Source of the DNA: Ruminococcus albus 7 = DSM 20455
GTDB lineage: Bacteria > Bacillota > Clostridia > Oscillospirales > Ruminococcaceae
DNA length: 32,000 nt
Assembly: GCF_000179635.2 (NCBI RefSeq)
Contig: NC_014833.1
Span: 2,790,001 to 2,822,000, forward strand
Direction of reading: 5' to 3'
The position numbers and the translations under genes were made by a program. Below, piece by piece: positions 9,906 to 32,000 of this stretch. The notes under the pieces are model-generated. The model was not told the DNA's origin and did no database searches. It saw only the letters and a program-made list of their open reading frames with translations. The first letter of the stretch is position 1. Every line of letters begins with the position of its first letter.

Positions 9906-9920
9906 ATAAACAGTAACTCA

Positions 9921-14971: not shown

Positions 14972-15057
14972 TAATTTGTACTTGGGGAAGTATATTTTAT
15001 AAAGGCGGGGATAAGTCATAGTGCAGGGAATAGCACGGACGCATTCCAGAAAACAGG

Positions 15058-15090
15058 CGGCTGCAGCGCATTTACGCTGCGGTCGTTTTT
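15058..15090 (+). terminator. Intrinsic terminator-like hairpin ~120 nt upstream of prfB
   Basis: 11-bp stem 15058-15068 / 15075-15085 (two G-U pairs), 6-nt loop, then TTTTT at 15086-15090. Confidence 0.5.
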
Positions 15091-15207
15091 CGGCTGTAAA
15101 AAAGATATCTGAAATATCGGTAAAAATATTGCGTGAGGACTTTACAAACACGAGAAAATGTTATATAATATATGTGTATGTATTTTTGAATGTAAGGAGT
15201 TAATATA

Positions 15208-16344: not shown

Positions 16345-16350
16345 TTTAGC

Positions 16351-16647
16351 TGCACGTAAGGGCAGTGTGCATATAGAAGTATATATTATTTATCGGGGGA
16401 TAACTTTTCTGAAGAAAAGTTATCCCCCGAACCCGTCTGCAAAGGCTTTGCCTTTGTAGAATCAAACAGACTTTTAACTCTTTGGGGCATAGGGTATTTT
16501 TTTATAAGGAAAGACAAAAGAAATAGAAGTTTTTGGAATGGGGTTTGGCATCAGTGAAGCTGACGCTTAGGAATAACCCTTTTTCAAAATGGTTTTCCAA
16601 AACTGGCAGCATAAAACTTCTGTATTAGCACACTCCCCTTACGTGCA
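16351..16647. repeat. ~297-bp non-coding element with ~30-nt terminal inverted repeats (MITE-like or structured RNA)
   Basis: Left end TGCACGTAAGGGCAGTGTGCATATAGAAGT (16351-16380). The reverse complement of the right end (16616-16647) reads TGCACGTAAGGGGAGTGTGCTAATACAGAAGT. An internal perfect 15-bp stem/tetraloop lies at 16395-16428. Confidence 0.5.
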
Positions 16648-16664
16648 ACCCTTATTTTTATAAA

Positions 16665-16694
16665 CAAAAAAGCCATGACATTGTCTGCCATGGC
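16665..16694 (-). terminator. Terminator after the DUF624 gene
   Basis: AGCCATG...CATGGCT hairpin (16671-16694), with the A-run at 16665-16670 giving a T-run on the minus strand. Confidence 0.65.
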
Positions 16695-16701
16695 TGATGT
16701 A

Positions 16702-17595
16702 TCACTTTATAGTTTTTTTCCTCTGTTTCTTCTGAACGGGTACTGCCTCTTCCTCGGCTGCCTTGTCTTCAAACAGAGCCTCTTCTTCGTTGTCGGTAGC
16801 ATCTTCGGGATTCTGCTCGCCCAGTTTATCGTAGTAAGGCTGTATAACGTGCTTACGTATAACAGGATAGCAGTTGAAACAAGCTATGAAGGTCACGAAT
16901 GTGAAGGGGAAGAACATTGCAAGTGTCAGACCTGCAGGCATAGTCGAAGGAAGTACCAGCAGCAGATAGCTGAACAGTATTATAATAAGCGAAGACACCA
17001 GTGTGTAGAGTGTCTTTTTCAGCCCTATAGGCACCAGAAACAGTGCGTTGCGGAGTATCTGCTTCATGGTAAGGTTCGTCGAGCACATCATAGGATAGAT
17101 ATAGAAGTGCATCATGAAGAACACAAGCATACACGATAGACAAAGCACATAGGGTACATACATGATACTGTTCTTCTGAGCCATAGTGCTGTACAAGGGC
17201 ACGCCAACAATAAAGCTTACTATGGCGATCGTATCAATATAGCCCATTATAAGTCCCTGCTTCAGGTTGAGTTTGAATGCCTTGCGGAAATCGTGAAGCA
17301 TGAATGTCGGACGTTCCTGAGAATAGTTCCTTACCACCCTTGTCATCGCCGCAGATGCAGGACCCATTATGCCTGATATCAACATCAGAAGCAGCCACTT
17401 CATATTACCGGTCTCTGTTATCATAACCAGCATGACGAAGATAGGTACTATGAACAGGAAGTATATAAAGTTCAGACCCATGAGTTGCCACATATGCCTG
17501 AAGTATACCTCCCAGAATTTGAAAAACGGGCGTTTCTCATGGGGCGTTTTAAGTACACCGCGCCCGGGCGTATCGTAATTTCCGAATAATCCCAT
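16702..17595 (-). CDS. YesL-like (DUF624) integral membrane protein
   Basis: N-terminus FFKFWEVYFRHMWQLMGLNFIYFLF, multiple TM helices and an acidic C-terminal tail. AAGGAG RBS. Confidence 0.7.
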   Translation of the reverse strand: MGLFGNYDTPGRGVLKTPHEKRPFFKFWEVYFRHMWQLMGLNFIYFLFIVPIFVMLVMITETGNMKWLLLMLISGIMGPASAAMTRVVRNYSQERPTFMLHDFRKAFKLNLKQGLIMGYIDTIAIVSFIVGVPLYSTMAQKNSIMYVPYVLCLSCMLVFFMMHFYIYPMMCSTNLTMKQILRNALFLVPIGLKKTLYTLVSSLIIILFSYLLLVLPSTMPAGLTLAMFFPFTFVTFIACFNCYPVIRKHVIQPYYDKLGEQNPEDATDNEEEALFEDKAAEEEAVPVQKKQRKKTIK

Positions 17596-17634
17596 TTTAC
17601 ACTCCTTGATATTAGTCCGATGGGGTATTCCCCG

Positions 17635-18258
17635 TCAGACCAGCTTTTCTATGAATATATGACAGCAGACTGTATCCGCACCTGCTGCCAGTGTCAGCAC
17701 AGCCTCCGCTGCAAGCAGCCTTGCGCCGAACAGTCTTACTGCTTCGGGAAGACTCTGCTCTCCCCTGCCCGATATTATGAGCCGCAGACAGATATTTGAA
17801 AGGTTGAAAGCTTCCCTTGCCGCAGCAGCAAGCGCGAGAGTAGATATCACCGCCCCGGGTATCAGTATACCCGCTGCGTACAGCATATCTCCCCTGCCTG
17901 CCATACTGTACAGCTGTGCTGCCTTATGACCTATGCCCATACCTCTCAGCATGAGCAGCAGCACTTCAAAGGGCTGACCCACCGCACACATACCGGCGGC
18001 AGCAAGTCCAAGTAAAAATACTGTGCTGCCAAGCAGTGAGCCTGCCATCACCCGCCCGAGATCGGTCTGAAAAAGACTTTGTATCTCAGCGGAGCGGAAT
18101 ATAAGTCTGTCTGCCTGAGTATCACGCGAAAGCATGAAGCACATCGTCCCGATGAGCACGCCTGTAAGTGACGCGGCACACATGAACGCGAACACACCTC
18201 CGCCGTATGACGTTTTGCCGTAATCTGTCCTGCAGGGGCTTGTCTGCATATACATCAC
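17635..18258 (-). CDS. Polytopic membrane protein, SpoIIM-like (stage II sporulation protein M family)
   Basis: ~205 aa with about five TM helices. Size and hydrophobicity pattern resemble SpoIIM; I see no diagnostic motif. The start is ambiguous (GTG 18258, ATG 18255 or ATG 18249). Confidence 0.45.
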   Translation of the reverse strand: MMYMQTSPCRTDYGKTSYGGGVFAFMCAASLTGVLIGTMCFMLSRDTQADRLIFRSAEIQSLFQTDLGRVMAGSLLGSTVFLLGLAAAGMCAVGQPFEVLLLMLRGMGIGHKAAQLYSMAGRGDMLYAAGILIPGAVISTLALAAAAREAFNLSNICLRLIISGRGEQSLPEAVRLFGARLLAAEAVLTLAAGADTVCCHIFIEKLV

Positions 18259-18309
18259 CTCTAAGATAATGTATGCACCCCACAGTAGAAAAATTCGGCT
18301 TTCGGTATA

Positions 18310-19113
18310 TTATTCTGCCAGTTCGTAAGCCCTCTTTGTACAAGCCTCACAGCACTCTCTTACAGCCTTGCCGATATCGTTTGCCCTGAGCTTTTCAAGA
18401 CCTGCTATGGTAGTGCCGCCCTTTGAGGACACCATAGTTATCAGCTCATCAAGAGTTCTGCCGCTGTCAGTGATCATCTTAGCGGAGCCGATGAGTGACT
18501 TTGCAAAAAGATCGGTAGCAGCCTTTTCATCAATGCCTACGCTCTTAGCGTAATCAATGAAGCACTGGGCATAGAGATATATGAAAGCAGGTGAAGAACC
18601 GTTTATGGCGATCACCTCTTTCATCTTATCCTTTGGCAGTACGGAATATATTCCGCATGAACCGAATATCCTGCATACCAGTGCGAACTCTTCTTCGGTA
18701 ACACTGTCGGACTTAGCCAGTGCAGTTGCACCCTCACCAAGAAGCAGAGGTGTATTGGGCATTACCATTACTACCTTAGCGCCTTCAATGGTCTTGGCTG
18801 CTATCTTGTCATCTGTAACGCCTGCACATATAGATACTATAACTTTATCCTTCGTTACTTCGTTCTTTATCTTAGCAAGTACTTCATCAAGCTGCTGGGG
18901 CTTTATAGCAAGGAACACACAATCGCACTGTGCTGTGAGCTCAGCTTCGCTGTTAACGCCCTTAACGCCCATAGCTGCTGCTCTTTCAAGGGCTGCCTCG
19001 CTGCAGTCGTAGGCATAAAGCTCTATCTCACTGCTCATGCTGCTGCCGAGGATACCTTTCATTATAGCGCTGCCCATATTGCCTGCGCCGATGAATCCTA
19101 CTTTATAACTCAT
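18310..19113 (-). CDS. proC: Pyrroline-5-carboxylate reductase
   Basis: Rossmann motif VGFIGAGNMGSAI, and a C-terminal SKGGTT...GL motif typical of ProC. Confidence 0.9.
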   Translation of the reverse strand: MSYKVGFIGAGNMGSAIMKGILGSSMSSEIELYAYDCSEAALERAAAMGVKGVNSEAELTAQCDCVFLAIKPQQLDEVLAKIKNEVTKDKVIVSICAGVTDDKIAAKTIEGAKVVMVMPNTPLLLGEGATALAKSDSVTEEEFALVCRIFGSCGIYSVLPKDKMKEVIAINGSSPAFIYLYAQCFIDYAKSVGIDEKAATDLFAKSLIGSAKMITDSGRTLDELITMVSSKGGTTIAGLEKLRANDIGKAVRECCEACTKRAYELAE

Positions 19114-19256
19114 TTAATGACACTCCCATTCAAAAAATAGATAAATATATTATATCACGCTTCACGCTATATTTCAAGTACATTTTATGAAAAATACTAT
19201 ATCCCCCGATACACCGCATCTATCGAACTTACGGTCTTCGGTAACAGTATACATAC

Positions 19257-19288
19257 AAAAAGACACCTCTGCACACAGCAGAAGTGTC
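19257..19288 (-). terminator. Terminator after the hybrid histidine kinase gene
   Basis: GACACCTCTGC (19262-19272) / GCAGAAGTGTC (19278-19288) with one mismatch. The A-run at 19257-19261 gives a T-run on the minus strand. Confidence 0.6.
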
Positions 19289-19294
19289 CTGTTA

Positions 19295-20545
19295 TCATTT
19301 GAGGAGTTTTGCAAGCTCGGAATACAGCATAGCGGGTATAACGGGCTTAGCGATATGGCTGTTCATGCCCGATGCCTTTGACTGCTCGATATCCTCGGGA
19401 TAAGAATTCGCGCTCATGGCTATTATTTTCACCGAGGTGCTGTCAGGACGTCCCAGTGCGCGTATCTTCCCTGCAGCTTCAAGACCATCCATTACAGGCA
19501 TTTTGACATCCATAAGCACAACATCGTAATATCCGGTATCAGATGCCATGAACTTTTTTAGTCCCTCATATCCGTTGCCTGCCGCATCAGTTTCAAAGCC
19601 CACACGCTTCAAAAGCTTTATCTCGAGTATGCGGTTGATGGAATGATCGTCCACCACAAGCGCACGCTTTCCGCTGAAATCATAGCTGTCGGGAGCGCTG
19701 TTCTCACCAGTCCCTGCGGCTGATGCAAGATCGCAGTCGATCTCGACCATAAACTCTGTACCCACGCCTACCTTTGATTTTACGCGGATATCACCGTCCA
19801 TGAGATCAACAAGGTTCCTGACGATAGAAAGTCCCAGACCTGTGCCCTGTATCTCGGCAGTAGCAGAAGTCCTCTCCTGTGTGAAGGGTTTGAACATATT
19901 CGCCGCAAATTCATCGGACATACCTATACCGTTATCCTTTACGGTGAATACCGTCCTTACTTTTCCGTTACCTGCTGCCAGCTGTGAAACGGTCAGCACT
20001 ACCCTGCCCTTTTCAGGTGTGTACTTTACAGCATTTGAAAGCAGGTTCATAAGTATCTGCCTCAGCCTCAGCTTATCGACCATGAGGGTATCGGCAAATA
20101 TATCATGGAATTCAGCCACGAACTCGATGCCCTTCTGTTCGGCAAGGGGGGATATGACAGATGTGATATTTTCAGCCAGTGCTTCAAGAGAATAGGCAGC
20201 GGGATAAAGCGTGAGCTTTCCGCTTTCTATCTTTGCCATATCAAGTACATCCCCAAGTATCTCCAGCTGGAACTCAGCCGATTCCCTTATCCTGGTGAAA
20301 TACTCTTTGACAGTCCTGCCGCTGCATTCCTCCTCGCCCAGCCTTGCCAGACCTATTATGGAATTCATTGGTGTACGTATATCATGGCTTGTGCGGGACA
20401 TAAAGTCCGTCACCGCCTCATAGTTCCTGCGTGCCTTTGAAAGCTCGCCTTTAAGCTCAGCGATCTCTTTCACTGCAGCCAGATACTCTTCCTCGGTATG
20501 CAAGCAAGCACCTCCCATCATAATATTTATACTATTATAACACAT
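19295..20545 (-). CDS. Cytoplasmic hybrid sensor histidine kinase / response regulator (HisKA-HATPase-REC)
   Basis: H-box SHDIRTPMNSIIGL, N/G boxes (LLSNAVKYT, DNGIGM, GTGLGLSI), and a REC domain (LVVDDHSINR...VLMDVKMPVMDG). The real start may be TTG 20503, which lies 5 nt after GGGAGGTG. Confidence 0.85.
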   Translation of the reverse strand: MCYNSINIMMGGACLHTEEEYLAAVKEIAELKGELSKARRNYEAVTDFMSRTSHDIRTPMNSIIGLARLGEEECSGRTVKEYFTRIRESAEFQLEILGDVLDMAKIESGKLTLYPAAYSLEALAENITSVISPLAEQKGIEFVAEFHDIFADTLMVDKLRLRQILMNLLSNAVKYTPEKGRVVLTVSQLAAGNGKVRTVFTVKDNGIGMSDEFAANMFKPFTQERTSATAEIQGTGLGLSIVRNLVDLMDGDIRVKSKVGVGTEFMVEIDCDLASAAGTGENSAPDSYDFSGKRALVVDDHSINRILEIKLLKRVGFETDAAGNGYEGLKKFMASDTGYYDVVLMDVKMPVMDGLEAAGKIRALGRPDSTSVKIIAMSANSYPEDIEQSKASGMNSHIAKPVIPAMLYSELAKLLK

Positions 20546-22007: not shown

Positions 22008-22409
22008 ATGTACGAATCCAAGCAGCCATATTTCTATGGCACAGGCAGAAGAAAGCACTCTGTTGCCCGCGTTCGTGTTTACGAGGGTACAGGTAAGGTT
22101 ACTATCAACGGCAGAGATATCGACGATTATTTCGGTCTTGAGACTCTCAAGCTGATCGTTCGTCAGCCTTTTGCTGTTACTGATACTGTTGACAAGTACG
22201 ACATCGTTTGCACTGTTACAGGCGGCGGTGTTACAGGTCAGGCAGGCGCAATCAGACATGGTCTTTCCAGAGCTCTGCTCCAGGCTAGCGATGAGTTCAG
22301 ACCTCTCCTCAAGAAGGAAGGCTTCCTCACTCGTGACCCCAGAATGAAGGAAAGAAAGAAGTACGGTCTGAAGGCTGCAAGACGTGCGCCTCAGTTCTCA
22401 AAGAGATAA
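22008..22409 (+). CDS. rpsI: 30S ribosomal protein S9
   Basis: [13 protein letters not shown]...[14 protein letters not shown]...[18 protein letters not shown]. Start at ATG 22008 (AAGGAG RBS), not the ORF-track start at 21870. Confidence 0.95.
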
Positions 22410-22431
22410 TTTTATCCCTGTTGGGAGTGTT

Positions 22432-22458
22432 CAAAAACACGTATTTACGCTGTTTTAT
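22432..22458 (+). repeat. Junction motif, copy 3 (TCAAAAACACGTATTTACGCTGTTTTA)
   Basis: Shares CGTATTTACGC exactly with 30855-30865, and TACGCTGTTTTA with copies 1 and 2. It lies 23 nt after the rpsI stop. Confidence 0.7.
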
Positions 22459-22498
22459 TCGGTTTGGGTTTATCTGAAATACGGTAAAATTCGGACGG

Positions 22499-22529
22499 TA
22501 ACTAACACGTAACTAACGGGTAACTAACA
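22499..22529 (+). repeat. Three tandem GTAACTAAC 9-mers with 11-bp phasing (candidate integrase arm-type sites / attL)
   Basis: Copies start at 22499, 22510 and 22521. GGTAACTAACAC recurs at 30762-30773. Confidence 0.65.
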
Positions 22530-22537
22530 AAAAAATC

Positions 22538-22572
22538 AAGGCATTCATCGGTTGATGGATGCCTTATTTTTA
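22538..22572. terminator. Bidirectional terminator
   Basis: AAGGCATTCATC (22538-22549) / GATGGATGCCTT (22554-22565), with an A-run to the left and a T-run to the right. A second 13-bp perfect hairpin lies at 22578-22611. Confidence 0.7.
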
Positions 22573-22620
22573 TATGAATAGCCGTCAAGAAATGTTTATC
22601 TTGACGGCTATCTTCGTTTA

Positions 22621-23664
22621 CTAAATAATAAGTGAAGAAATAAATCTATCCATATATGGTCTATACAGTTTTATGAAGTTCCTCATTTTATTATCAAATG
22701 TTATGCAATTTGTTATTTTGGGAATTGCTGAAACATGATCAAGACATCCCATCCAAAAGAAGTCAAATATATCATTTTTTTGAAATTTTTGTCCGTTAAG
22801 TAACCATTGAGATAGTAAAACTTGACTTGTGTATTCTTTTTGTGCCTTTGTGAATTTTGGATCAAAGACCTCAGATAATTCTTCAAATATTTTTTGTATG
22901 TTTAATGGAGCATCTGATATTACTTTTACAATCTTGGACATTTCTGGACTGTTTCCTTTATACCTTGTCGCTTGTTCAAATGCTTGATCAAATATTGTAC
23001 TAATATCAACTGGTTTTCCTTGACGATAGTATTCACATACCCACTCAATCAGTATATCTATCTTCAAACAAGCATCACGAATACAATCAATGAAAAAATT
23101 CTTAACAATTCTCTGCGGGTCATTTTTTTCATAACCTTCTTCATATGCTTGTTGTAGCAGTTTGCGGTAATTGTTGTTATTCTTTATTAGTCGTTCATAC
23201 ACAAACCTAAGTGCATATAACTGTTCATTTTGAGGTATATCTTTTTTTGAGGTTATACTCGTATAAGTGTAGATCGTTAGGATTTCATATAGAAAGAAAT
23301 GAGAAAATGCTAACTCACATTGCATTTTGGCATTAGTAATCTTATTAATATAAAGTAATGTACTTTTAGTGTTATCAAATATAGTTTGTAAATCTAATAA
23401 GTCCTTTGAAACATCATAAGTAGGAGTATTGTTCCAAATCTTGACTTTTTTATCTGCAAGAAAAGAAATTATAGATTTTATCGTTTTAGGTGAATCCTTA
23501 AAATGTACTACCATTTCCATGTATGCACTTGATGGTAACGCTATATCGCTTATTTTTTCGCATACACTTCGCAATTTGCTTATATCGATATTTGGTGGAA
23601 TAGGTTGTCCTAATTTTTCATTGCCATAAAAGTAATATAAAGCGTTTGCATCCAGAAATAACAT
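22621..23664 (-). CDS. Hypothetical 347-aa protein, PIN-like nuclease motifs split by a ~240-aa helical insert
   Basis: MLFLDANALYYF (D5), YMEM (E50), NDIFDFFWMGCL (D298/D301) and ITFDNKMRNF (D324). AAGGGAG RBS. Very AT-rich. The family was not recognised. Confidence 0.55.
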   Translation of the reverse strand: MLFLDANALYYFYGNEKLGQPIPPNIDISKLRSVCEKISDIALPSSAYMEMVVHFKDSPKTIKSIISFLADKKVKIWNNTPTYDVSKDLLDLQTIFDNTKSTLLYINKITNAKMQCELAFSHFFLYEILTIYTYTSITSKKDIPQNEQLYALRFVYERLIKNNNNYRKLLQQAYEEGYEKNDPQRIVKNFFIDCIRDACLKIDILIEWVCEYYRQGKPVDISTIFDQAFEQATRYKGNSPEMSKIVKVISDAPLNIQKIFEELSEVFDPKFTKAQKEYTSQVLLSQWLLNGQKFQKNDIFDFFWMGCLDHVSAIPKITNCITFDNKMRNFIKLYRPYMDRFISSLII

Positions 23665-23686
23665 ATTATACTCCCTTTCTTCCTCT

Positions 23687-23719
23687 ATACCGCTGAGAGA
23701 ATAAATCCCTCAGCGGTAT
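23687..23719. other. 11-bp-stem hairpin between the integrase stop and the 347-aa ORF start
   Basis: ATACCGCTGAG (23687-23697) / CTCAGCGGTAT (23709-23719). No T-run on either strand. Confidence 0.4.
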
Positions 23720-23727
23720 CTTTATGC

Positions 23728-24777
23728 CTATATCCTATTGATAGCCTCCAACAGCTCCTGCACATTAACGTGCGTATAGACCTTCTCGGTCAGTGACATT
23801 GCACCCGAATGACCGACGATCTTCTTTATCAGCGTAGGCGATACCTCTTTCTCGGTCATCATCGAGATGCAGGTGTGACGAGTATCGTGCGGCTTGTGGG
23901 AGCAGCCGATCAGCTCCATAACAGGTGTCCAGTAGGAATCGTAGTAGTTGCGGTAGATGAACTGCTTGCCGTCGGGAGTATGGAGCAGATATTCGTTGCC
24001 GTCCTCGTACCACTTCTTGAAGAACGGATAAGTCCTGTCGTGTATCGGTACAACACGGATACCGCTTTCGGTTTTACTTTCCACAACCTTGAAGCAATGC
24101 TCCTCGATGTTGACGTTCTCACGTTTCAGGTCGAGCAGCTCGGACACACGAACTCCGCTGTATATCAGCATGAGGACGATCTGAGCGTAGATGTTGCTTT
24201 CCTGCACCCACAGAGCATCAATTTCTTCCTTACTGAAAGGAGAGCGGTCTGTCTTGTTCGGGTTCTTGTCCTTGAACTTGATAATATCCACATACTCAGA
24301 GTAGTCTTTCATGCAGATCTCATACTTCATGGCATACTCATACATCTGGCTGAAAAGCACTTTCAGCTTGCGGAGCGTCGGATAGTTCTTACCGCAGTTG
24401 TCTACAACACCCTGCAAGTCAGTCAGCTTCAAATCCTTGAACACTCTGTCGTGCAGGGGTTCACAGGTATTATATGACGCTTTGTAGGCTTTGGCGTTGC
24501 TGTCCGAGATCGTGGGGAACTTCTCCGCCGACCACTTCTCAAAGACTTCGGCAAAAGTGATTTTGGAGGCTTCAATGTCATAAGGATTCTTATTGTAGTC
24601 CATGAGCATTTCAAGCCCTTTAGCCCTGGTCGGCGCATAGCCGATAGTGATGTACTGCTGTTTACGCTTGCCTGTCTTTGTGTCAATATCCCAGCCCACC
24701 GTCTTGCGGACAATGTAGGGATTACGCCTGTTGCCCGACAGCTTGTATACAGTGCCAACACCGTTAGCTAACTTCAT
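23728..24777 (-). CDS. int: Tyrosine site-specific integrase (phage-integrase family with N-terminal arm-binding domain)
   Basis: 349 aa. Catalytic signature R (GVRVSELL), HxxR (HDTRHTCISMM) and H...Y (GHSGAMSLTEKVYTHV). The N-terminus VYKLSGNRRNPYIVR is arm-binding-like. Confidence 0.9.
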   Translation of the reverse strand: MKLANGVGTVYKLSGNRRNPYIVRKTVGWDIDTKTGKRKQQYITIGYAPTRAKGLEMLMDYNKNPYDIEASKITFAEVFEKWSAEKFPTISDSNAKAYKASYNTCEPLHDRVFKDLKLTDLQGVVDNCGKNYPTLRKLKVLFSQMYEYAMKYEICMKDYSEYVDIIKFKDKNPNKTDRSPFSKEEIDALWVQESNIYAQIVLMLIYSGVRVSELLDLKRENVNIEEHCFKVVESKTESGIRVVPIHDRTYPFFKKWYEDGNEYLLHTPDGKQFIYRNYYDSYWTPVMELIGCSHKPHDTRHTCISMMTEKEVSPTLIKKIVGHSGAMSLTEKVYTHVNVQELLEAINRI

Positions 24778-25540
24778 TCTGCTTCTCCTCCTTCAGCCGT
24801 ACTACCTCACGGCAGGTGTCAACGATCTCGGAAATGCGGTCGATCTGAGTTTTCAGCTCGTCAAGGGGCATTGGTGCTTCTTCCTGTTCGTCCTTGTTGA
24901 CGGTGAACTTCTTAAAATCGCTGATTATGGACGATGTAAAGCCCTTGACTGTCATTATCAGATAGTTTTCAAATTGCAGATATTCGCTTATGGACATATA
25001 GCACATTGTCTTTCCTGCCTTTTTGAGAGCAATTACATATCCCTCGGAGAATAACTGCAACAACTCAGGCGGCATATCATACACAGGCTGTCCCTCGTCC
25101 GTCTGAGAAAGAATGAAGTAATCGCTCCACACATCACGAGAAGCCTTGATCTCCAGTGTGTAACCGAGGTTAGCAAGCACCGTTGACAGCACGTTCTGAT
25201 TACGCTTGCCAACAAATGTGGCGGTATCGAGCAGCACCGCCTGCGATTTCAGGCTATCAAAGCTGTCCCCCATAAGGTGATTGAACTTCTGTAATGCTTC
25301 ATAATAATCATCGTCATAACTGTCCGCATAGACAACTATATCCTCGACAGGCACATCATAGAACTCAGCAAGCATATTGATATAGCTGTTTGTGATAGTA
25401 GCCTTGCCGTGTTCGATACCGTTGTAATGTGTACGTGAAGCACCGAGAGCTTCTGCAAGCTGATTCTGCGACAAACCACGCTCGGTACGCAGAGCAACTA
25501 TCTTTTCTCTTGTTTTCTCCTGATCTATTGCTGTCTTCAT
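24764..25540 (-). CDS. XRE-family HTH regulator with a ~180-aa C-terminal domain of unknown function
   Basis: HTH LRTERGLSQNQLAEALGASRTHYNGIEHG. Its stop overlaps the integrase start by 14 nt. Start set at ATG 25540 after GGAGGG (ORF-track start 25552). Confidence 0.8.
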   Translation of the reverse strand: MKTAIDQEKTREKIVALRTERGLSQNQLAEALGASRTHYNGIEHGKATITNSYINMLAEFYDVPVEDIVVYADSYDDDYYEALQKFNHLMGDSFDSLKSQAVLLDTATFVGKRNQNVLSTVLANLGYTLEIKASRDVWSDYFILSQTDEGQPVYDMPPELLQLFSEGYVIALKKAGKTMCYMSISEYLQFENYLIMTVKGFTSSIISDFKKFTVNKDEQEEAPMPLDELKTQIDRISEIVDTCREVVRLKEEKQNEVS

Positions 25541-25552
25541 TTTGCCCTCCAC

Positions 25553-25711
25553 TATTTATGAATAAATTGTTAATGTACTATTTTTATCAAGACAATTGAA
25601 ATGTCTGGAAGTGTATGGTACAATTATATCAGAATCGCAGAGAGATGTCAAGAGGCACCCTGAGATTTTTTCACACGATTAGAGATAGATATATAATCGG
25701 AAGGAGACCAA
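25553..25711. promoter_or_regulatory. Divergent control region of the island
   Basis: Rightward TTGAAA (25596-25601), 17-nt spacer, TACAAT (25619-25624), plus a second TTCACA-16-TATAAT nearer the ORF. AATTGT/ACAATT inverted repeats are possible operators. Confidence 0.45.
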
Positions 25712-25966
25712 ATGAATAATACTTCTAATTCTCTGCCGGCTTTTACAGGCAGAAACGTACCGATCAAGGAGATCGCACAGGCAACAGGCAAAGACCCGCA
25801 GTACATCAGAATCGGCTTACAGAAAGGCATATTCCGTTTCGGATATGCTTTCAAAAAAGAAGGTTCAAGTGAATACAACTATCTTTGCCCTGACAAGAAA
25901 GTATGGGAGGACTTAGGCTATTTCAGAGCAGAAACGGAGGTCAGCGATGCAGGAAATGATGAATGA
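25712..25966 (+). CDS. Small DNA-binding protein, Cro/excisionase-like (putative)
   Basis: 84 aa. VPIKEIAQATGKDPQYIRIGLQKG looks like a helix-turn-helix. GGAAGGAG RBS. Divergent from the XRE gene and overlaps the primase ORF start. Confidence 0.5.
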   Translation: MNNTSNSLPAFTGRNVPIKEIAQATGKDPQYIRIGLQKGIFRFGYAFKKEGSSEYNYLCPDKKVWEDLGYFRAETEVSDAGNDE

Positions 25967-27623
25967 TGCTGCGGAGCTGATTACGGTGGCGAACAACGGG
26001 GATGATCTCCCCGTTGTACCTGATGAGGAGGTACAGTCCGAAGAACAGGAGAAGTCTGAGCTTGATAAGCTGAAAGAAGAACTGTCAGCGGTAACGTATG
26101 ACGATATACTTAACAGCACTGCGCCCTATGAAAAGATACTTACCTTGCCTAATGAGTTTGCAATATCGCAGTATATCACGGCATTCAGACAAGTAGCCAA
26201 GAAATTCAAGCTGACGGCGGACTTTGACAGCCTTGTTGCTCCGTATAAGGACAAGGCTCTGCGTCAGCTCAAAGAGGCAGAGCATCAGGAAAAGAAAGAG
26301 GATAAAAGCAAATATCCAAAGTGGTGGGACGGAACACAGGTCAATGAGGATGTATTCTGCACCGAACTTCTCACACAGCACACACTGTACTGCATCAATG
26401 GGCTGTTCTATGATATTGACGGCGAGTTCCTTATCTCGGAGCTGAGCAAGGTCATATACGAGCGTATCAAGCCTTATGTAGTGAAGAATGTCGCAGACCG
26501 TACCAAACGTCTGGTGGAAGCCATGAAGATAAAGTGCTACCGTCCTGCACCTGAGCCTAACGAACACACTATACATCTGAAAAACGGCACACTTCATCTG
26601 GCACAGGGACACTTTGTATTCTCTCAGGGAAAGCAGTTTACAATGAACCGCCTGGGCATTGAATACCGTTCCGATGCACCGAAGCCTGAACGCTGGCTCA
26701 AGTTTGTGCAGGAGCTATTGAACGAACAGGACGTTATGACCTTGCAGGAGTATATGGGGTATCTGCTGATACCGTCCACAAGAGCACAGAAAATGCTGAT
26801 GATCTCAGGCAACGGCGGCGAAGGAAAGTCCCGTGTCGGCAAGGTGCTTTTCGAGATCATGGGATATAAGAATTCCGTAAGCGGAAGTGTATCAGGTCTG
26901 GACAACGGAGCTGCTGCCCGATTCAATAAGGTCAAGCTCCTCGGAAAGCTCTGCATGATAGATGATGATATGGATATGTCTGCACTTGAAAAGACAGAGT
27001 TCCTCAAACAGCTTATCACAGCGGAGATACCTATGGAGATCGAGCCGAAAGGCAGTCCTTCTTTTCAGGCGTTATTGTACACAAGAGTAATCGCATTCGG
27101 CAACAATCCGATCTCTGCACTTTATGATCGCAGTGAAGGCTTCTTCCGCAGGCAGATGATACTTGTTGCAAAGCCCGTTCCGAAAGACCGTACAGCAGAC
27201 AAACATCTGACCGAAAAACTGCTTGCAGAAAAAGAAGGAATATTCCGTTGGTGCCTTGAAGGATTGGAACGACTTATCGCCAATGATTTTGAGTTTACGA
27301 TCAGCGATCAGGCGAAAGAAAACCTCAAACGCAGCGAGCGTGAATGCAACAATATCATTCCATTTATGGAGAGCGAGCATGACTTCAAGTTTGACGCTTC
27401 GGGGCAGATACATTCTCAGGAATTATACTGGGCATATCAGAGTTGGTGCAGGCTCAACAGCCTTGATGAATTATCAAGAAGAACCTTCTCCGGCTATCTG
27501 AAATCTCATGCAGATGATTACGGTATTACCTATTCCGAAAATGCTGTCAACGAACAAGGCAGGAGAGCCAGAGGATTCCTTGGAATGAGATACACTTATC
27601 GTCCCCCGACGATCATGTACTGA
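25947..27623 (+). CDS. P4/D5-family primase-helicase (phage/plasmid primase C-terminal NTPase)
   Basis: WLKFVQELL...LQEYMGYLLIP...MLMISGNGGEGKSRVGKV (Walker A) and CMIDDDMDM (Walker B). This is the layout typical of P4-type replicases on islands and satellites. Confidence 0.8.
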   Translation: MQEMMNDAAELITVANNGDDLPVVPDEEVQSEEQEKSELDKLKEELSAVTYDDILNSTAPYEKILTLPNEFAISQYITAFRQVAKKFKLTADFDSLVAPYKDKALRQLKEAEHQEKKEDKSKYPKWWDGTQVNEDVFCTELLTQHTLYCINGLFYDIDGEFLISELSKVIYERIKPYVVKNVADRTKRLVEAMKIKCYRPAPEPNEHTIHLKNGTLHLAQGHFVFSQGKQFTMNRLGIEYRSDAPKPERWLKFVQELLNEQDVMTLQEYMGYLLIPSTRAQKMLMISGNGGEGKSRVGKVLFEIMGYKNSVSGSVSGLDNGAAARFNKVKLLGKLCMIDDDMDMSALEKTEFLKQLITAEIPMEIEPKGSPSFQALLYTRVIAFGNNPISALYDRSEGFFRRQMILVAKPVPKDRTADKHLTEKLLAEKEGIFRWCLEGLERLIANDFEFTISDQAKENLKRSERECNNIIPFMESEHDFKFDASGQIHSQELYWAYQSWCRLNSLDELSRRTFSGYLKSHADDYGITYSENAVNEQGRRARGFLGMRYTYRPPTIMY

Positions 27624-27632
27624 GCAACAATT

Positions 27633-27809
27633 TTACACGGTTCGATACACACTTTTATACACACCTGAAAAGAAAGAATATCGAGGCTTACACACATACA
27701 CAGATATTCTGTTTCTTTGATACGGGAAAGCCACAGAAATATTTTTTCTTTTTTGATGATAAAACTTCGGTCAGTTCTGCCGTTGCGTGTGAAGTGTGTA
27801 ATCGTGTAA
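27633..27809. repeat. Iteron-like (A)TACACAC repeats flanking an AT-rich core; candidate replication origin
   Basis: Forward copies at 27645-27652, 27657-27664 and 27689-27703. Inverted copies lie within 27786-27809 (GCGTGTGAAGTGTGTAATCGTGTAA). AT-rich tract at 27741-27765. It lies immediately 3' of the replicase gene. Confidence 0.45.
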
Positions 27810-27934
27810 ATTGAATAGCTGTCAGAAAAGAAAAATGACAAGTTTGACAGGCACAGAAATGCCCGGAATTCTCTTTTGAAAAAGAGAAAAATGAAGCCAC
27901 GTCCACAGGTGCGTATGGAAGAGTAGCAAGCACG

Positions 27935-27972
27935 GTATTGTGTGGGTACAAAAACTGAAAACCACACAATAC
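27935..27972. repeat. Perfect 11-bp inverted repeat upstream of mobC (candidate oriT or operator)
   Basis: GTATTGTGTGG (27935-27945) / CCACACAATAC (27962-27972) with a 16-nt spacer. Confidence 0.4.
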
Positions 27973-28034
27973 AAAGCTTGTGAGAGGGACACCCCTCAGA
28001 CCCCGATTTTTAGTATACGAAAGAGAGGATTTCT

Positions 28035-28397
28035 ATGAGAAAAAGTGAGAAGAAAAAGCAGGTAATAAAGCGTGACCGCTACCTGAAAATACGAGTAACC
28101 GAAGAGGAGCTTGAAGCATTCAAACGTAAGTTTAAAAACAGTGGAATGCGAACATTTTCCGGCTTCGTCAGAGCAATGATATTTGAAGGCTATATCGTTC
28201 ATTTCAATGAAGAGGAACTACGTGAAATATACCACCTGGTAGCTAACATTTCCAACAACATCAGTCAGATCATTCTTCACGTCAGCCGAGACGATGATTC
28301 TTTCGACAGCGACATTGCTGAAATCAAAGAGAAGATGGCGCAGATATGGCAGCCGCTGAACTTTTTTACGTGTAAAGTTTTGCAGCTGAGACACTGA
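28035..28397 (+). CDS. mobC: MobC-family relaxosome accessory protein
   Basis: RDRYLKIRVTEEELEAFKRK...SGFVRAMI... and VANISNNISQI, matching the MobC pattern (...R.t..E...l...A......iGnNlNQia). Confidence 0.7.
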   Translation: MRKSEKKKQVIKRDRYLKIRVTEEELEAFKRKFKNSGMRTFSGFVRAMIFEGYIVHFNEEELREIYHLVANISNNISQIILHVSRDDDSFDSDIAEIKEKMAQIWQPLNFFTCKVLQLRH

Positions 28398-28542
28398 CAG
28401 AATACAATGCGCATTGCACTGGATTTTATCTTCTTTTTGCTGCGCTCTTCACAAAAATAATTACAATCATTCCGCATAGCTGGACTCTTGAATATCTGTC
28501 CGCTATAATAGATTCACAACAATAATTTATGGAGGCGATTTT

Positions 28543-28755
28543 ATGTTTAGAATACCCGAACTCGCAATGCCGAGAACTCGCACAGTCACTACCATCTGCA
28601 ACGGCAAGAAAGAGATATGGGACGATCGTGAGGAAGCACAGAATTTCTTTCTCAGACAGATGATGACTACCGAGGGTGAGGAACGTGACCGAGCAGAGTG
28701 CGTTTACATTCAGCTCATTCATGGGCTGGAGGAGTGTTCGGACGAGGATGAATAA
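28543..28755 (+). CDS. Hypothetical 70-aa acidic protein
   Basis: GGAGG RBS 7 nt before the ATG, followed by a strong terminator. No family recognised. Confidence 0.5.
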   Translation: MFRIPELAMPRTRTVTTICNGKKEIWDDREEAQNFFLRQMMTTEGEERDRAECVYIQLIHGLEECSDEDE

Positions 28756-28770
28756 GAGAATATAATTATG

Positions 28771-28805
28771 AACTCTCAACTGCTAATAGGTTGAGAGTTT
28801 TTCTA
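28771..28805 (+). terminator. Rho-independent terminator
   Basis: AACTCTCAAC (28771-28780) / GTTGAGAGTT (28790-28799) followed by a T-run. Confidence 0.8.
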
Positions 28806-28880
28806 TAATCAACTTTATCTAATTGACTAAATAGACAAAATGTGATATAATTATAGAAAAAATACTGGAGAGGTGTTACT

Positions 28881-30698
28881 ATGAAAGAAAACAAAGAATT
28901 AAGAATTGTCGATAGTAAAGTTCATTCTCTTTCTGAAATATTTTCAGCAAGCTACACTGTTGACTTCTATCAGCGTGAATACGTATGGCAGAAAAAGCAG
29001 ATAGAAGACCTTATTTCAGATCTGACAATCGAATTTCTCAAGAACTGGAAACCTGAGCACGATACAACTGTTACCGGAGAATACGATCCTTACTACATGG
29101 GCGAAGTTGTCCTTTCTGTAAAACCCGGTAATGTTAATTCGGTAATTGATGGTCAGCAGAGAATAACGACTTTTACCCTGCTATTGATGTACATTATTAA
29201 AAGATTTGAGAATACTCCTGATTTTCCTAAAAGTGATATGGAGAGACTGGTTTATAAAAATGAGCGTGGAGCTTGGAAGTTTACTCTTGGAATAGACGAA
29301 CGAAATAAATGTATGAAAGCTCTCTACGAAAAAGGCAGTTATTCACCTCCAGATGGTGAGAATATGTCTGTATCCATAAAAAACTTAGTCGATAGATATA
29401 ATGATATCGGAGAATGCTGGGATGATAGAATAAACGAATCCAACATTAATTGCTTTGTATATTGGCTTATGGGAAATGTAATGTTTTCAAAAGTCTGGAC
29501 TAATAGCGATGAGTTTGCCTATGTGATATTTGAAACTATGAATGACCGTGGCTTATCGCTTACTCAGATAGAAATGCTCCGCAGTTATCTGCTTGCCAAT
29601 ATAAATGATGAAAATCGCCAGGACTCTATGGAATTGTACGATCAGGTCATATCAGAACTGGCAACTGTAAAGCTAAGTTCAAAATCAAAAGCTGAGTTTG
29701 AGTTTTTCAAGATTTTTTTCAGAGGACATTATGCAGATAACCTTTCTCAAAGCGCTGATTCAAATTCCGATTTCATCGTGATCGGTCAACAATTTCATCG
29801 TTGGGTTAGAGATAAAAGCAAAGACCTCGGTTTAAATACATCAGGGGATTATGTGGACTTTATTAACAAGATAGCATTTTTCGCCCGAAAGTATATCTAC
29901 ATTATGAAGAAAATAGAGAACAGAAAAGACAGCGTTACAGACTATCTTTATCTGATAGTAAATAGCGATTATGGCTTTACTCTTCAGTCTGCTCTTCTGT
30001 TGTCAGCTATTTCATATAATGATACTGATGCTATTGTAGATGAGAAAATCAAGATTGTATCAAAATATCTGACGAAAGTGCTCTCGTGGCGTGTATGGAG
30101 ACACACAAGTATAGCTCAGAGTTCTATGGAGGATAAGATTTACAAACTTTGCAAACAGCTCCGAGGAAAGAATATCGATGAAATTAAAGAAATTCTTGCA
30201 ACTGAACCTATCGAAATCCCCGAACTTAGTACTCCGCCAACTCTTAACATGATGAATAAACCTAAGATCAGAGTGCTGTTATCGCTTATTACAGAAATAG
30301 TAGCAAGAGAATCAAATGAGTCTGATTATATGCTGAACAAGGAGAATATCGAGGTTGAGCATATATGGGCAGACCATTATGAATGGTTCAGTGAAATATT
30401 CCCTAATGAGGCTGACTTTAATACATATAGAAATAATATCGGTGGTCTGCTTGTACTACCAAAAAGCTTCAACGCTTCGTATGGCGATATGAAATACAAA
30501 GATAAGGTAGAGTTGTATTTCAGCCAAAACATTCTTGCTCAGTCATTGTGTGAAAAGAAATATACTAACAGCCCTGGTTTCAAGAACTTCATAGAGAAAA
30601 GTAACCTTGATATACACTCGTATGACGATTACACTCGTGATTCTATTACAGAACGAGCAGAATTATATAGGCAGATATTACTGTGGAATTGGAAATAA
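28881..30698 (+). CDS. DUF262/DUF1524 two-domain nuclease, GmrSD-like (type IV restriction family)
   Basis: N-terminus FYQREYVWQKKQIEDL...VIDGQQRITTF (DUF262 DGQQR motif, codons at 29148-29162). C-terminus IEVEHIWADH...NIGGLLVLPKSFNASYGDMKYKDK (His-Me/HNH-like DUF1524). GGAGAGGTG RBS. AT-rich. Confidence 0.75.
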   Translation: MKENKELRIVDSKVHSLSEIFSASYTVDFYQREYVWQKKQIEDLISDLTIEFLKNWKPEHDTTVTGEYDPYYMGEVVLSVKPGNVNSVIDGQQRITTFTLLLMYIIKRFENTPDFPKSDMERLVYKNERGAWKFTLGIDERNKCMKALYEKGSYSPPDGENMSVSIKNLVDRYNDIGECWDDRINESNINCFVYWLMGNVMFSKVWTNSDEFAYVIFETMNDRGLSLTQIEMLRSYLLANINDENRQDSMELYDQVISELATVKLSSKSKAEFEFFKIFFRGHYADNLSQSADSNSDFIVIGQQFHRWVRDKSKDLGLNTSGDYVDFINKIAFFARKYIYIMKKIENRKDSVTDYLYLIVNSDYGFTLQSALLLSAISYNDTDAIVDEKIKIVSKYLTKVLSWRVWRHTSIAQSSMEDKIYKLCKQLRGKNIDEIKEILATEPIEIPELSTPPTLNMMNKPKIRVLLSLITEIVARESNESDYMLNKENIEVEHIWADHYEWFSEIFPNEADFNTYRNNIGGLLVLPKSFNASYGDMKYKDKVELYFSQNILAQSLCEKKYTNSPGFKNFIEKSNLDIHSYDDYTRDSITERAELYRQILLWNWK

Positions 30699-30762
30699 GC
30701 TATAAGTTGTCTGCTTATTCAGCAACAATAAAATAGCCCTGCATTGTCACAAAACAAGCAGG

Positions 30763-30782
30763 GTAACTAACACACAACTAAC
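30763..30782 (+). repeat. Two phased 9-mers, GTAACTAAC and ACAACTAAC (candidate arm sites / attR)
   Basis: Starts at 30763 and 30774 (11-bp phasing). They match the triplet at 22499-22529. Confidence 0.6.
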
Positions 30783-30844
30783 AAAACAGCCTCAAAACAA
30801 CGCAATAGCGTAATTGCACTTTATCTAAGAGATAATCAGACACC

Positions 30845-30871
30845 TCAAAACTTGCGTATTTACGCACTTTG
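30845..30871 (+). repeat. Junction motif, copy 4 (TCAAAACTTGCGTATTTACGCACTTTG)
   Basis: The reverse complement reads AAAGTGCGTAAATACGC, identical to the core of copies 1 and 2. The same-strand 11-mer CGTATTTACGC is shared with 22441-22451. Confidence 0.7.
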
Positions 30872-30875
30872 CGAG

Positions 30876-30916
30876 TGGTCAAATGCTCTTTGGTCAACTA
30901 TTGGTCAAATGGTCAC
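30876..30916 (+). repeat. Four TGGTCA(A/C) boxes next to the second integrase (candidate arm-type sites)
   Basis: Boxes at 30876-30882, 30891-30897, 30902-30908 and 30910-30916. Confidence 0.5.
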
Positions 30917-30945
30917 CTCCCTGTTCGCGCAGGGAGGTTTTTATT
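30916..30945 (+). terminator. Terminator-like hairpin
   Basis: CCTCCCTG (30916-30923) / CAGGGAGG (30930-30937) followed by TTTTT. Confidence 0.6.
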
Positions 30946-30950
30946 TGCCT

Positions 30951-32000
30951 TTACGCAAGGCACAGCTCGATCTGCTCGGCAGTTCGGGCTTTTGTTTTTC
31001 GCAGAACATCGGCATAGATGTCAGCGGTGACGTTCACATCACAGTGACCGAGATGCTCGGACACAACTTTCAGGTCGATACCGCTGTTCAGGAGCATTGT
31101 TGCGTTGCAGTGACGGAGCTGATGCAGTGTCATATCCTCGAATTCCGTTCCTTTGGTGAAGCGTTTGAGGGACTGATATACCGAATTGCGGTCACGGTAG
31201 TTCCCTCTTGCAGACACGAATACCATTTCAGGGTGAGCGAAATCATCACCGAGGGCGAGTTTCAGCTTCTCGATGTAGTCCTTCTGAGCGAGAAGGACTT
31301 TTTTCAGCTCCTGTCCCATACCGATGATGCGGATACTGCTCTCGGTCTTAGGATCGGTCAGTTCGTGCTTTCCGCCTATATCGGTCAGCGTATGGTTTAT
31401 GGAGATAGTGTTGTTCTCGAAGTCAATGTCCTCCCACGCAAGTCCGAGACACTCACCCGAACGCATACCCGTGTACAGCAGCACCTTTATGATACGCTTG
31501 AAATCCTCGTCCCACGGCTTGCTTTCAAGGTAAGCCATGAACCTTTTGAGCTTGTCCTCCTCCAAAGCCTTATTCTTGCGGCTTTTCTTCCGCTTTGGCA
31601 GTACCACGTTACGGCAGGGAGTATCACGGATAAAGCCCTGCTCTGCTCCTCTGCGGAAGATGCTCTGTACAATGACGTACAGCTTCTTGACAGTCGCAGG
31701 GTTCAGGTCATAGGACTGCATTATCTGCGTCAGCCTGGGAGCGTTGATGTCCTTGACTTTTATGTTACCGAGAACAGGCTCGATGTGGTTTTTGTACTGC
31801 CCCCAATAGGTGTAGACGGTACTCTCTTTCAGCTCCTGGGGAGCGTAGTTTGTGAAATACCAGTCGGCAAGCTCGGAAAAACGCATATTCTCGTTGAGCA
31901 GAGAATAACCCTTGCAGTGTCTCTCGAACTCAAAAGCGTACTCCTGAGCCAGCTTCTCGGCTTTCTTTTCAGTCACCCCGACAGGCGGAGTGAAAGTGGT
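30951..32000 (-). CDS. int: Tyrosine site-specific integrase of a second element (5' end outside the window)
   Basis: R (TGMRSGECLGL), HxxR (HQLRHCNATML) and H...Y (LGHCDVNVTADIYADV). The ORF-track start at 31976 is a GTG, and the frame stays open to position 32000, so the N-terminus is probably truncated by the window. Confidence 0.85.
   Translation of the reverse strand, partial: TTFTPPVGVTEKKAEKLAQEYAFEFERHCKGYSLLNENMRFSELADWYFTNYAPQELKESTVYTYWGQYKNHIEPVLGNIKVKDINAPRLTQIMQSYDLNPATVKKLYVIVQSIFRRGAEQGFIRDTPCRNVVLPKRKKSRKNKALEEDKLKRFMAYLESKPWDEDFKRIIKVLLYTGMRSGECLGLAWEDIDFENNTISINHTLTDIGGKHELTDPKTESSIRIIGMGQELKKVLLAQKDYIEKLKLALGDDFAHPEMVFVSARGNYRDRNSVYQSLKRFTKGTEFEDMTLHQLRHCNATMLLNSGIDLKVVSEHLGHCDVNVTADIYADVLRKTKARTAEQIELCLA

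Follow-up and report, generated by a model that had tools for sequence, protein, structure and literature searches.

Here we describe an integrative island within a stretch of 32,000 nucleotides from the chromosome of Ruminococcus albus 7 (DSM 20455; NC_014833.1, positions 2,790,001 to 2,822,000), hereafter the window, whose positions are used for all coordinates. The island, approximately 8.4 kb in length (22411-30836), lies at the 3' end of rpsI, the gene for ribosomal protein S9, and is a real, well-delimited and recently mobile element. It belongs to a family newly described here from rumen Ruminococcus, and is an unusual variant of the hitch-hiking islands already known. Its tyrosine integrase, Int1, recombined it into the last codons of rpsI, with AAGAGATAAT as the core of the exchange. 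With regard to its mode of movement, we propose, at about even confidence, that it is a self-replicating integrative element with a candidate origin of transfer (oriT), an accessory protein and no relaxase, similar to the iOriT elements and mobilizable genomic islands (MGIs), and that it would be mobilized in trans by a conjugative helper.

The limits of the island were obtained from public assemblies that encode exactly this RpsI protein (loci taken from these for comparison carry L-numbers below), which yielded contigs with the same left flank and four kinds of right flank. In L001, L003 and L006 the site is empty, with rpsI followed by its native terminator and then by panBCD; in L002 and L008 a second integrative element, here called element 2, stands alone immediately after rpsI; in L004 and L010 the island and element 2 are found in tandem, as in the window; and L009 has a left end resembling that of the island, next to another cargo gene. 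L004 (assembly GCA_000621285.1) corresponds to the window protein for protein across this region. The right flanks of relatives (the empty site of L001, L002 and other contigs) part from the window directly after the rpsI stop codon TAA, and the DNA past 30836 is identical at every base to the left end that element 2 shows beside rpsI in L002. The empty and alternatively occupied rpsI sites, together with an exact repeat of the core, thus define the island as 22411-30836, with the crossover within the 3' end of rpsI.

The target gene itself (22008..22409, plus strand; Pfam Ribosomal_S9, matched on an identical protein) has its last codons and stop codon inside the attachment core. On the left, the attL core TTCTCAAAGAGATAAT (22395..22410, plus strand) includes AAGAGATAAT at 22401-22410; on the right, the attR core TTATCTAAGAGATAAT (30821-30836, plus strand) carries the same exact block at 30827-30836, preceded by TTATCT. 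The two cores match at 14 of 16 positions, and AAGAGATAAT occurs exactly twice in the window (expected 0.15). The island therefore possesses its own module for site-specific integration and excision, complete with att sites, as do integrative and mobilizable elements (IMEs). A preliminary description of this DNA, which had been drawn from the sequence before any comparison of genomes, had already recognized an integrative island just downstream of rpsI with a second integrase element in tandem, and both points are borne out by the empty sites and by the solitary copies of element 2. Its ends, set at 22432 and 30871, have to be moved to the stop-codon core. It had also taken CGTATTTACGC as an attachment repeat, and we rejected this sequence as att core: its right copy belongs to element 2 and is present beside rpsI in L002, where there is no island, its left copy lies 31 nt inside the island, and further copies are found at 55, at 1659 and in other elements. 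The matching repeats that had been noted at both ends are indeed non-random, and an empty site exists as had been anticipated; neither repeat is an att site, however, as one (GTAACTAAC) is internal and the other (CGTATTTACGC), a palindrome common to unrelated elements, does not coincide with the junction.

The internal repeats form part of conserved attachment arms. The P' arm (22411..22530, plus strand) contains the palindrome CGTATTTACGC at 22440-22450 and three direct repeats of GTAACTAAC with an 11-nt spacing (22498-22528), which are detected by TRF, and it is kept in L009, L011, L012, L014, L015, L017 and L019. In the P arm (30763-30782, plus strand), the arrangement GTAACTAAC ACA CAACTAAC gives one exact and one degenerate repeat approximately 45 nt from the core; this arm and attR are arranged in the same way in L011, L012, L014, L015, L019, L072 and L073, the right arm conserved across the family consisting of two repeats and then GCACTTTATC-core. 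Exact copies of GTAACTAAC in the window number four, versus 0.23 expected, and arm repeats at both ends are conserved in at least six genomes. By their geometry, these repeats are probably arm-type sites of Int1; a low-threshold Pfam search of the Int1 N-terminus, which returned no arm-binding domain, weighs against such binding. The island also brings an intrinsic terminator (22538..22565, plus strand), with an equivalent hairpin in all family members, that stands in for the displaced native terminator of rpsI visible in the empty site. In L015, L019, L072 and L073, the host DNA after attR starts with TTTTATCCCTAT.GGGA and resembles the left arm of the island, so that the direct repeat there is about 30 bp long. 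In L011, at 17487-17680, sequence similar to the end of the host rpsI (GTTCTCGAAGAGATAAGTTCATTATCGGC...) appears again about 140 nt past attR, and may be an insertion scar or a small duplication. The predicted products of excision are an attP site with GCACTTTATCTAAGAGATAATTTTATCCCTGTTGGG and a restored chromosomal site with CAGTTCTCAAAGAGATAATCAGACACC.

Open reading frame (ORF) listing and family scans gave the gene order orphan, Int1, XRE repressor, orf84, Rep, NikA-like protein, orf70 and GmrSD, followed by Int2 of element 2, in agreement with the order given in the preliminary description. Int1 (23728..24777, minus strand; PF00589, E 3e-19; phrog_1, E 2e-51) has intact catalytic motifs, and all core ORFs are intact. 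It is followed by an XRE-family repressor of 262 aa (24764..25552, minus strand; HTH_3, E 3e-11) whose C-terminal domain of about 170 aa is uncharacterized and found no match in a low-threshold Pfam search. Back-to-back divergent promoters lie at 25623..25697, the leftward one matching the consensus at 12 of 12 positions and carrying an extended TG, and the rightward one at 11 of 12. The first gene of the rightward operon, orf84 (84 aa; 25712..25966, plus strand), overlaps rep and matches phrog_6058 (E 1.5e-14); no match to it was found in Pfam, even at low threshold, or in the PDB. It is possibly an excisionase (Xis) or a regulator, and in L085 an orf84-like gene comes after a separate Cro-like gene.

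Rep (558 aa; 25947..27623, plus strand) combines D5_N, DUF5906 (a superfamily 3, SF3, helicase) and a C-terminal Pox_D5 domain, with a TIGR01613 primase_Cterm match (E 1e-38). The reading of this protein as a P4/D5 primase-helicase therefore stands for the D5_N and SF3 helicase domains, and falls for the primase: family scans and a low-threshold Pfam search detected no recognizable primase domain, and no match in the N-terminal 200 aa. Its only solved relative is PDB 7ola, a 'DNA primase' that we take to be the primase-helicase of a Staphylococcus aureus pathogenicity island (SaPI), and which aligns to residues 248-534 only. Directly 3' of rep lies the replication origin (27634..27810), in which five TACAC iterons (27634-27701) are followed by an AT-rich spacer and by two to three inverted GTGTA, two of them at 27796 and 27804. 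The iterons, already noted in the preliminary description, are the densest in the window at this place, with 7 copies in 207 nt as compared to 0.45 expected, a density equaled by 0 of 5000 shuffles; in nine aligned relatives, the iteron columns are invariant, while the spacers split into two variant groups. The position and make-up of this cluster suit a Rep-dependent origin. The core genes have a G+C content of 0.44-0.47, higher than that of the cargo genes (0.30-0.37).

An integrase, a long XRE repressor, a small divergent gene, rep and origin follow one another as had been described, and this is also the layout of satellites of the phage-inducible chromosomal island (PICI) type. Hence it could be argued that the island is a phage satellite of the PICI, SaPI or StCI kind, in which a Stl-like XRE protein would be inactivated by a protein of a helper phage, after which the island would excise, replicate through Rep and the iterons, and spread either in helper capsids (by cos or pac mimicry, having no terS of its own) or as free amplified DNA in the manner of StCIs, its cargo blocking phages. 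The module of int, long repressor, divergent operon, rep and iteron origin 3' of rep, with accessory genes at both ends, fits the PICI criteria; the one solved relative of Rep, the PHROG matches of orf84, orf70 and Rep, and the occurrence of the nikA-orf70 cassette (below) in a prophage-like region all point in this direction. StCIs also have no packaging genes (PMC13376191), and type C PICI calls are ambiguous (PMC10085698). Against this stands the lack of any match to terS, ppi, cpm, capsid or other packaging or hijack families, that is, of a packaging module. A phage collection gave DNA matches only to four unannotated human-faecal scaffolds, and the one examined, L086, contains a chromosomal rpsI and so provides no evidence of encapsidation. 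Moreover, Rep is at most 28% identical to proteins of true phages, no candidate helper phage was identified, the island carries a gene for a relaxosome accessory protein, and relatives encode relaxases. We consider this explanation unlikely, albeit one to be taken seriously.

Recent mobility is argued for by the distribution of the family. When one genome per species was scanned with Rep, at least six other Ruminococcus/Oscillospiraceae genomes (L011, L012, L014, L015, L017, L019) proved to carry the island core at rpsI, with fragments elsewhere. This core comprises int, the XRE repressor, orf84, the SF3 helicase Rep, the iteron origin, the hairpin, the NikA-like gene and orf70, in islands that range from 8.4 to about 13 kb. 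With respect to the window copy, Int1 is 95-99% identical, XRE 94-99%, Rep 87-96% and NikA 48-94%, compared to 79-83% for host RpsI and 66-73% for RplM. The island proteins are thus far more alike than those of their hosts, which argues for recent horizontal spread between species. These same values speak against a decayed, immobile remnant that has been domesticated as a defence island, the least probable of the explanations that we weighed. Such a remnant would be in line with the missing relaxase and packaging genes, with the failure to find an attP junction in metagenome and viral collections, and with the existence of decayed copies such as the Rep-only L016. In the window, on the other hand, core ORFs, including the integrase catalytic motifs, and both att arms are intact, most other members of the family are intact as well, Int1 and XRE have remained 94-99% identical across species that are about 20% apart in RpsI, and cargo turns over at two defined bays.

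Several further loci illustrate the surroundings of the family. The decayed copy at 9620-11542 of L016 (R. flavefaciens YAD2003) retains the native rpsI terminator, the 3' end of orf84 and Rep residues 45-558 (86%), and has no int, XRE, nikA or orf70. At 7912-11628 of L047 (metagenome-assembled genome UBA3730), a truncated Mob_Pre gene and Int2 directly adjoin a Rep fragment (residues 393-558), after which come nikA and orf70; the sequence can be read either as a recombinant of both element types or as a mis-assembly. Relatives of Rep with about 43% identity are found in L022-L062 (Faecalibacterium and others), several per Faecalibacterium genome and at no fewer than five loci in strain UT1; nearly all have a separate DnaG zinc-ribbon gene before Rep and about a third have a distant tyrosine integrase after it. 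They constitute a different family of elements that is abundant in the human gut. L085 and L086 (MT838910.1 and MT836114.1), human-faecal records labeled 'UNVERIFIED: Bacteriophage sp.', are fragments of integrative elements and not phages; MT836114.1 begins within rpsI and encodes an Int1-like integrase, a DUF3987 primase-helicase, a Mob_Pre relaxase and a HEPN protein.

The evidence for conjugative mobilization resides in a short cassette downstream of the origin. At its 5' edge lies a conserved hairpin (27926..28006, plus strand), our candidate oriT, with the stem GCAAGC/GTATTGTGTGG ... CCACACAATAC/GCTTGT, a second small hairpin and the motif ACCCCGA. Across the family, hardly any variation is seen in the 90 nt that precede nikA, which fold as DNA with -19.9 kcal/mol (z -5.2). 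In ten sequences, 95.9% of the stem cells were paired, versus at most 53% in slid controls, and three pairs displayed compensatory changes; since the ten sequences are related, this covariation provides modest support. The next gene encodes a NikA/MobC-like ribbon-helix-helix relaxosome accessory protein (28035..28397, plus strand; PF21983, E 5e-13), with weak matches to MbpA, Bacteroides MobA and Tn5252 Orf10, whose homologues are named MobC in the source records. Its domain and its position beside a conserved hairpin are those of the NikA/MobC class, and a relaxase partner, missing here, is found in L018 and L087. The last gene, orf70 (28543..28755, plus strand), encodes a small, acidic and highly conserved protein of 70 aa (phrog_34775, E 2e-19), and has its own promoter-like site (28481-28509) and a terminator hairpin (28771-28803). 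All 793 homologues of orf70 are unnamed, and its AlphaFold2 (AF2) model (pLDDT 73), a beta-hairpin with two helices, had no match in a fold search, nor had its sequence in a low-threshold Pfam search.

The same cassette is found on other backbones. In the same genome (GCA_000621285.1, contig JHYT01000032.1; L074), homology with the window, at 79% nucleotide identity, sets in at the 5' edge of the hairpin (27924), covers nikA and orf70, and ends at 28773. In L081-L084 (about 3000-12300), a cassette with compensatory changes in the stem lies between integrase and lysis genes of a prophage-like region that includes a large serine recombinase, a GH25 lysin and a D12 methylase. L018, from another Ruminococcus genome, whose Rep and orf84 are 68% and 80% identical to those of the window, shows the hairpin architecture, a NikA/MobC-like gene and, overlapping it, a gene for a 460-aa PF03432 relaxase (E 8e-34). 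In L087 (Ruminococcus albus), a PF03432 relaxase gene lies between nikA and orf70, with a relaxase-less hairpin-nikA-orf70 copy 6 kb away, and at rpsI in L086 a module of Int1-like integrase (63%), XRE and orf84-like gene is linked to a DUF3987 primase-helicase and a Mob_Pre relaxase. A tblastn search of the window with the L018 and L087 relaxases found no relaxase remnant. Taken together, these comparisons show that the block of hairpin, nikA and orf70 is portable, and it is probably a mobilization module from which the relaxase was lost. It should be noted that a gene for a single-stranded DNA-binding protein (SSB) follows the cassette in L074-L077 and L089. L074 (724-12332) represents a third island of this genome, with a different integrase, a DnaG zinc-ribbon, HTH_17 and an AAA_25 helicase; after the cassette come the SSB gene and a HATPase_c_3/Z1/DUF4420/AIPR cluster.

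According to the mechanism that we favor, the XRE protein would keep the element silent until a signal from the helper lifts repression; the element would then excise, and Rep would amplify the circle from the iterons. The hairpin would act as oriT: NikA would bind it, and a relaxase of the PF03432 type would nick it. This relaxase would be provided in trans by a conjugative or mobilizable element residing in the same cell, and the island would be transferred through the mating pore of that element. In the recipient, the island would integrate anew, either at rpsI or at an att site belonging to an element already present there, generating tandem arrays such as the one seen here. The gene content is that of an iOriT, namely an integrase and att sites and no relaxase or mating-pore genes, the oriT being a candidate. 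The preliminary description had left the choice between satellite and IME open, and the balance now leans to conjugative hitch-hiking, given NikA, the oriT-like hairpin and the relaxases of L018, L086 and L087.

A number of observations weigh against this mechanism. Neither relaxase nor type IV secretion system (T4SS) families, nor capsid or terminase families, were matched among the window ORFs in family scans, as had been stated from the outset; the relaxase of its own that an IME carries is therefore missing. No cognate helper was identified in this genome, the remainder of GCA_000621285.1 not having been scanned. The hairpin matches neither a known oriT nor the region upstream of mob in element 2, no Rfam family was matched, and the hairpin could instead be a regulatory structure or one for initiation on single-stranded DNA. 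The cassette gave no match in a plasmid collection. It also occurs in a prophage-like region, orf84 and orf70 match PHROG families, and the layout of int, repressor, rep and origin is shared with PICI-type satellites. Finally, the attP junction, searched with a strict pattern, gave no match in the metagenome and viral collections, and a relaxed pattern gave two, both of which proved to be attR sites, the native flank of the hosts concerned being similar to the P' arm.

The neighboring element 2 provides a relaxase of another kind. It is a separate IME that starts at 30837 and continues past the window end (30837..32000, minus strand), with GCGTATTTACGC at 30854-30865 in its left arm, a terminator at 30915-30938 and Int2 from 30951 to beyond the window; the same arm is found directly after rpsI in L002 and L008. 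Int2 measures 394 aa and is followed by a Mob_Pre relaxase in L004 and L002; it is 21% identical to Int1. The island could therefore be a passive passenger in cis, which moves only when it is excised in one composite with the adjacent MOBV element 2, or with an integrative and conjugative element (ICE) at the same site, through the outer att sites, that is, by the accretion-mobilization described for cis-mobilizable elements (CIMEs). The tandem with an element that encodes Mob_Pre, the core common to all junctions, the element-2-like arm that also follows the island in L014, and the tandem accretion documented at rpsI in streptococci (PMC5357655) would all be accounted for. Nevertheless, most family members (L011, L012, L015 and L019) have no adjoining element 2 and carry islands that are near-identical across species, the identity between Int1 and Int2 makes cross-recognition of arms unlikely, and a pure passenger would have no need of the int, the two arms, the rep and origin, and the nikA cassette that have been kept. 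We thus regard this explanation as very unlikely. We also tried mobilization of the island through a copy of the element 2 MOBV oriT, and found it unsupported, as the two have only chance-level 9-13-mers in common.

In L002, where element 2 is complete (10403-20402), it encodes Int2, Mob_Pre, a DnaG zinc-ribbon, a DUF3987 helicase and a type IIG restriction-modification (RM) system. Its candidate MOBV oriT, GCACAAACTCTGTCTTGTGCG/TAATTC, is located between genes, immediately upstream of mob and on the same strand as that gene, with a GTGCG/T motif after a hairpin. Three TGGTCAA repeats (30876-30910) may be arm sites of this element.

Our island can be compared with three groups of known elements. 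The iOriTs were established from six nosocomial species (Proteobacteria), on the basis of oriT families in common with identified helpers, and in the Vibrio MGI MGIVchHai6 the accessory protein MobI recruits the relaxase of the helper (10.64898/2026.01.13.699239). Like these, the island is delimited by att sites, carries an integrase and a presumed oriT, has no relaxase or mating-pore genes, and concentrates defence genes near oriT; with the MGI it also has in common a relaxosome accessory protein. It differs in that its oriT is putative, in its rumen Firmicute host, and in adding an SF3 helicase, an iteron origin and a phage-like repressor switch of its own. In streptococci, the 3' end of rpsI is targeted by three families of tyrosine integrases, with tandem accretions whose integrases are 21-69% identical (PMC5357655), and IMESag-rpsI has its own MOBV relaxase, MobSag, and a pMV158-type oriT (PMC5090054; PMC5357655). 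As described, these elements resemble ours in their tyrosine integrases into the rpsI 3' end, tandem accretion and size of about 10 kb, whereas the MOBV relaxase and oriT of IMESag-rpsI suit the neighboring element 2 and not the relaxase-less island. The StCIs of S. thermophilus have no packaging genes, carry RM and abortive infection (Abi) systems, and are typed only as type C/D PICIs (PMC13376191). PICIs, SaPIs and StCIs are similar to the island in their int, master repressor, divergent operon, rep and iteron origin, in their size (7-20 kb), in having no structural genes, in their defence cargo and in the short direct repeats at their ends, but the island differs from them in its conjugation-type accessory gene, in its Rep without a primase domain and in having no hijack genes.

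The remaining genes of the island lie in two bays, one separating attL from int and the other orf70 from attR, which are variable and hold mostly defence genes across the family. In the window, the left bay contains a 347-aa orphan (22621..23664, minus strand), a candidate defence gene with no match in Pfam, PHROG, PADLOC or NCBIfam and an empty PDB-sequence profile search. It has only 7 homologues, and one of them, elsewhere, is preceded by a candidate defence gene (PDC-S30) and has SMEK and PDDEXK genes as neighbors. The earlier label of PIN-like orphan finds weak support: the AF2 model is poor (pLDDT 51) and the top Foldseek matches, to VapC/PIN, have E ~0.4 and cover the first ~80 residues only. 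Candidate acidic residues D5, E58, D298 and D324 were picked by eye from the alignment, of which only D298 is listed as invariant. On the basis of this model, a PIN/VapC-like N-terminus is plausible. The right bay encodes a GmrSD-type (DUF262+DUF1524) type IV restriction enzyme (28881..30698, plus strand) with a promoter-like site of its own (28823-28851). It has the composition of the type IV enzymes, with an N-terminal DUF262 domain (GmrSD_N, PF03235, E 2e-29) that includes the DGQQR motif in its translation and a C-terminal DUF1524 His-Me nuclease (GmrSD_C, PF07510, E 4e-11), both in canonical order. PADLOC matches were HEC-06/Orf5/SspE/mREase_IV; the protein differs from GmrSD in that its best models are HEC-06/Orf5-type candidates and not the curated mREase_IV, and it may be specific for modified DNA.

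Defence-type cargo at both ends, as initially claimed, is corroborated by the known defence systems in the bays of relatives. Left bays carry an HNH protein of type PDC-M68A (L009), a D12 methylase with an HNH nuclease (L011 and L078), PDC-M50A with a ThsB-like (Thoeris-like) TIR protein (L012 and L014), AbiLi/AbiLii (L017) or an unknown protein of ~360 aa (L015 and L019). Right bays carry an AlwI-type RM system, AbiJ and TIR proteins (L012 and L014), a Type IIG RM system and a PD-T4-6 kinase (L015), a Z1/AIPR/DUF4420/HATPase cluster (L075), Mrr (L078), IS66 (L011), or a sigma factor and dockerin proteins (L019).

The palindrome CGTATTTACGC (GCGTA-TT-TACGC) has four exact copies in the window, at 22440, 30855, 55 and 1659, versus 0.01 expected, and is often found within a longer AAAAC...GTTTT palindrome. 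Other copies lie in L002 (10422 and 16226), L074 (634), L076 (2644), L011 (17462), L012 (19304) and L073 (10529), so that it is seen near the ends of at least four unrelated elements, of the Int1 type, the Int2 type, a third tyrosine-integrase type and a serine-recombinase element. It may be the site of a shared host or helper factor. At the left end of the window, two 30-nt direct repeats, AAAAGTGCGTAAATACG[C/T]TGTTTTAAGC (47-77 and 1651-1681), which include the palindrome CGTATTTACG, surround a 1.6-kb low-GC segment downstream of a GTPase gene. This segment contains the gene for a small recombinase of the serine type (Resolvase domain) along with an ORF of 141 aa (232-978 and 1155-1580, both on the minus strand), and resembles a small integrated element.

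A broader proposal, which we offer tentatively and hold to be somewhat unlikely, is that the cassette has been copied among unrelated integrated replicons in rumen Clostridia (two backbones in this genome, a prophage-like element and other defence islands), letting a relaxase and pore encoded elsewhere nick and export each of them, and that the palindrome beside at least four unrelated elements would be bound by a host or helper factor that these elements have in common and that coordinates their recombination.

These results extend the rpsI hotspot and its tandem accretion, known from streptococci, to rumen Ruminococcus, and provide a clean, comparatively defined case of a relaxase-less hitch-hiking island, with att core, arm sites, origin, candidate oriT and two bays, within a class that has been recognized only recently and mainly in Proteobacteria. 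The bays constitute a natural catalogue of defence genes, from which the 347-aa orphan and, in relatives, the left-bay proteins of 360 aa emerge as candidates for a role in defence. Two features stand out as the most interesting loose ends, namely the portable cassette of hairpin, nikA and orf70, and the palindrome common to unrelated elements. If the nikA-orf70 cassette truly confers mobilization in trans, the line between phage satellites and conjugative hitchers would be blurred; and if the broader proposal is true, satellite-like islands, and possibly prophages, would spread by conjugation.

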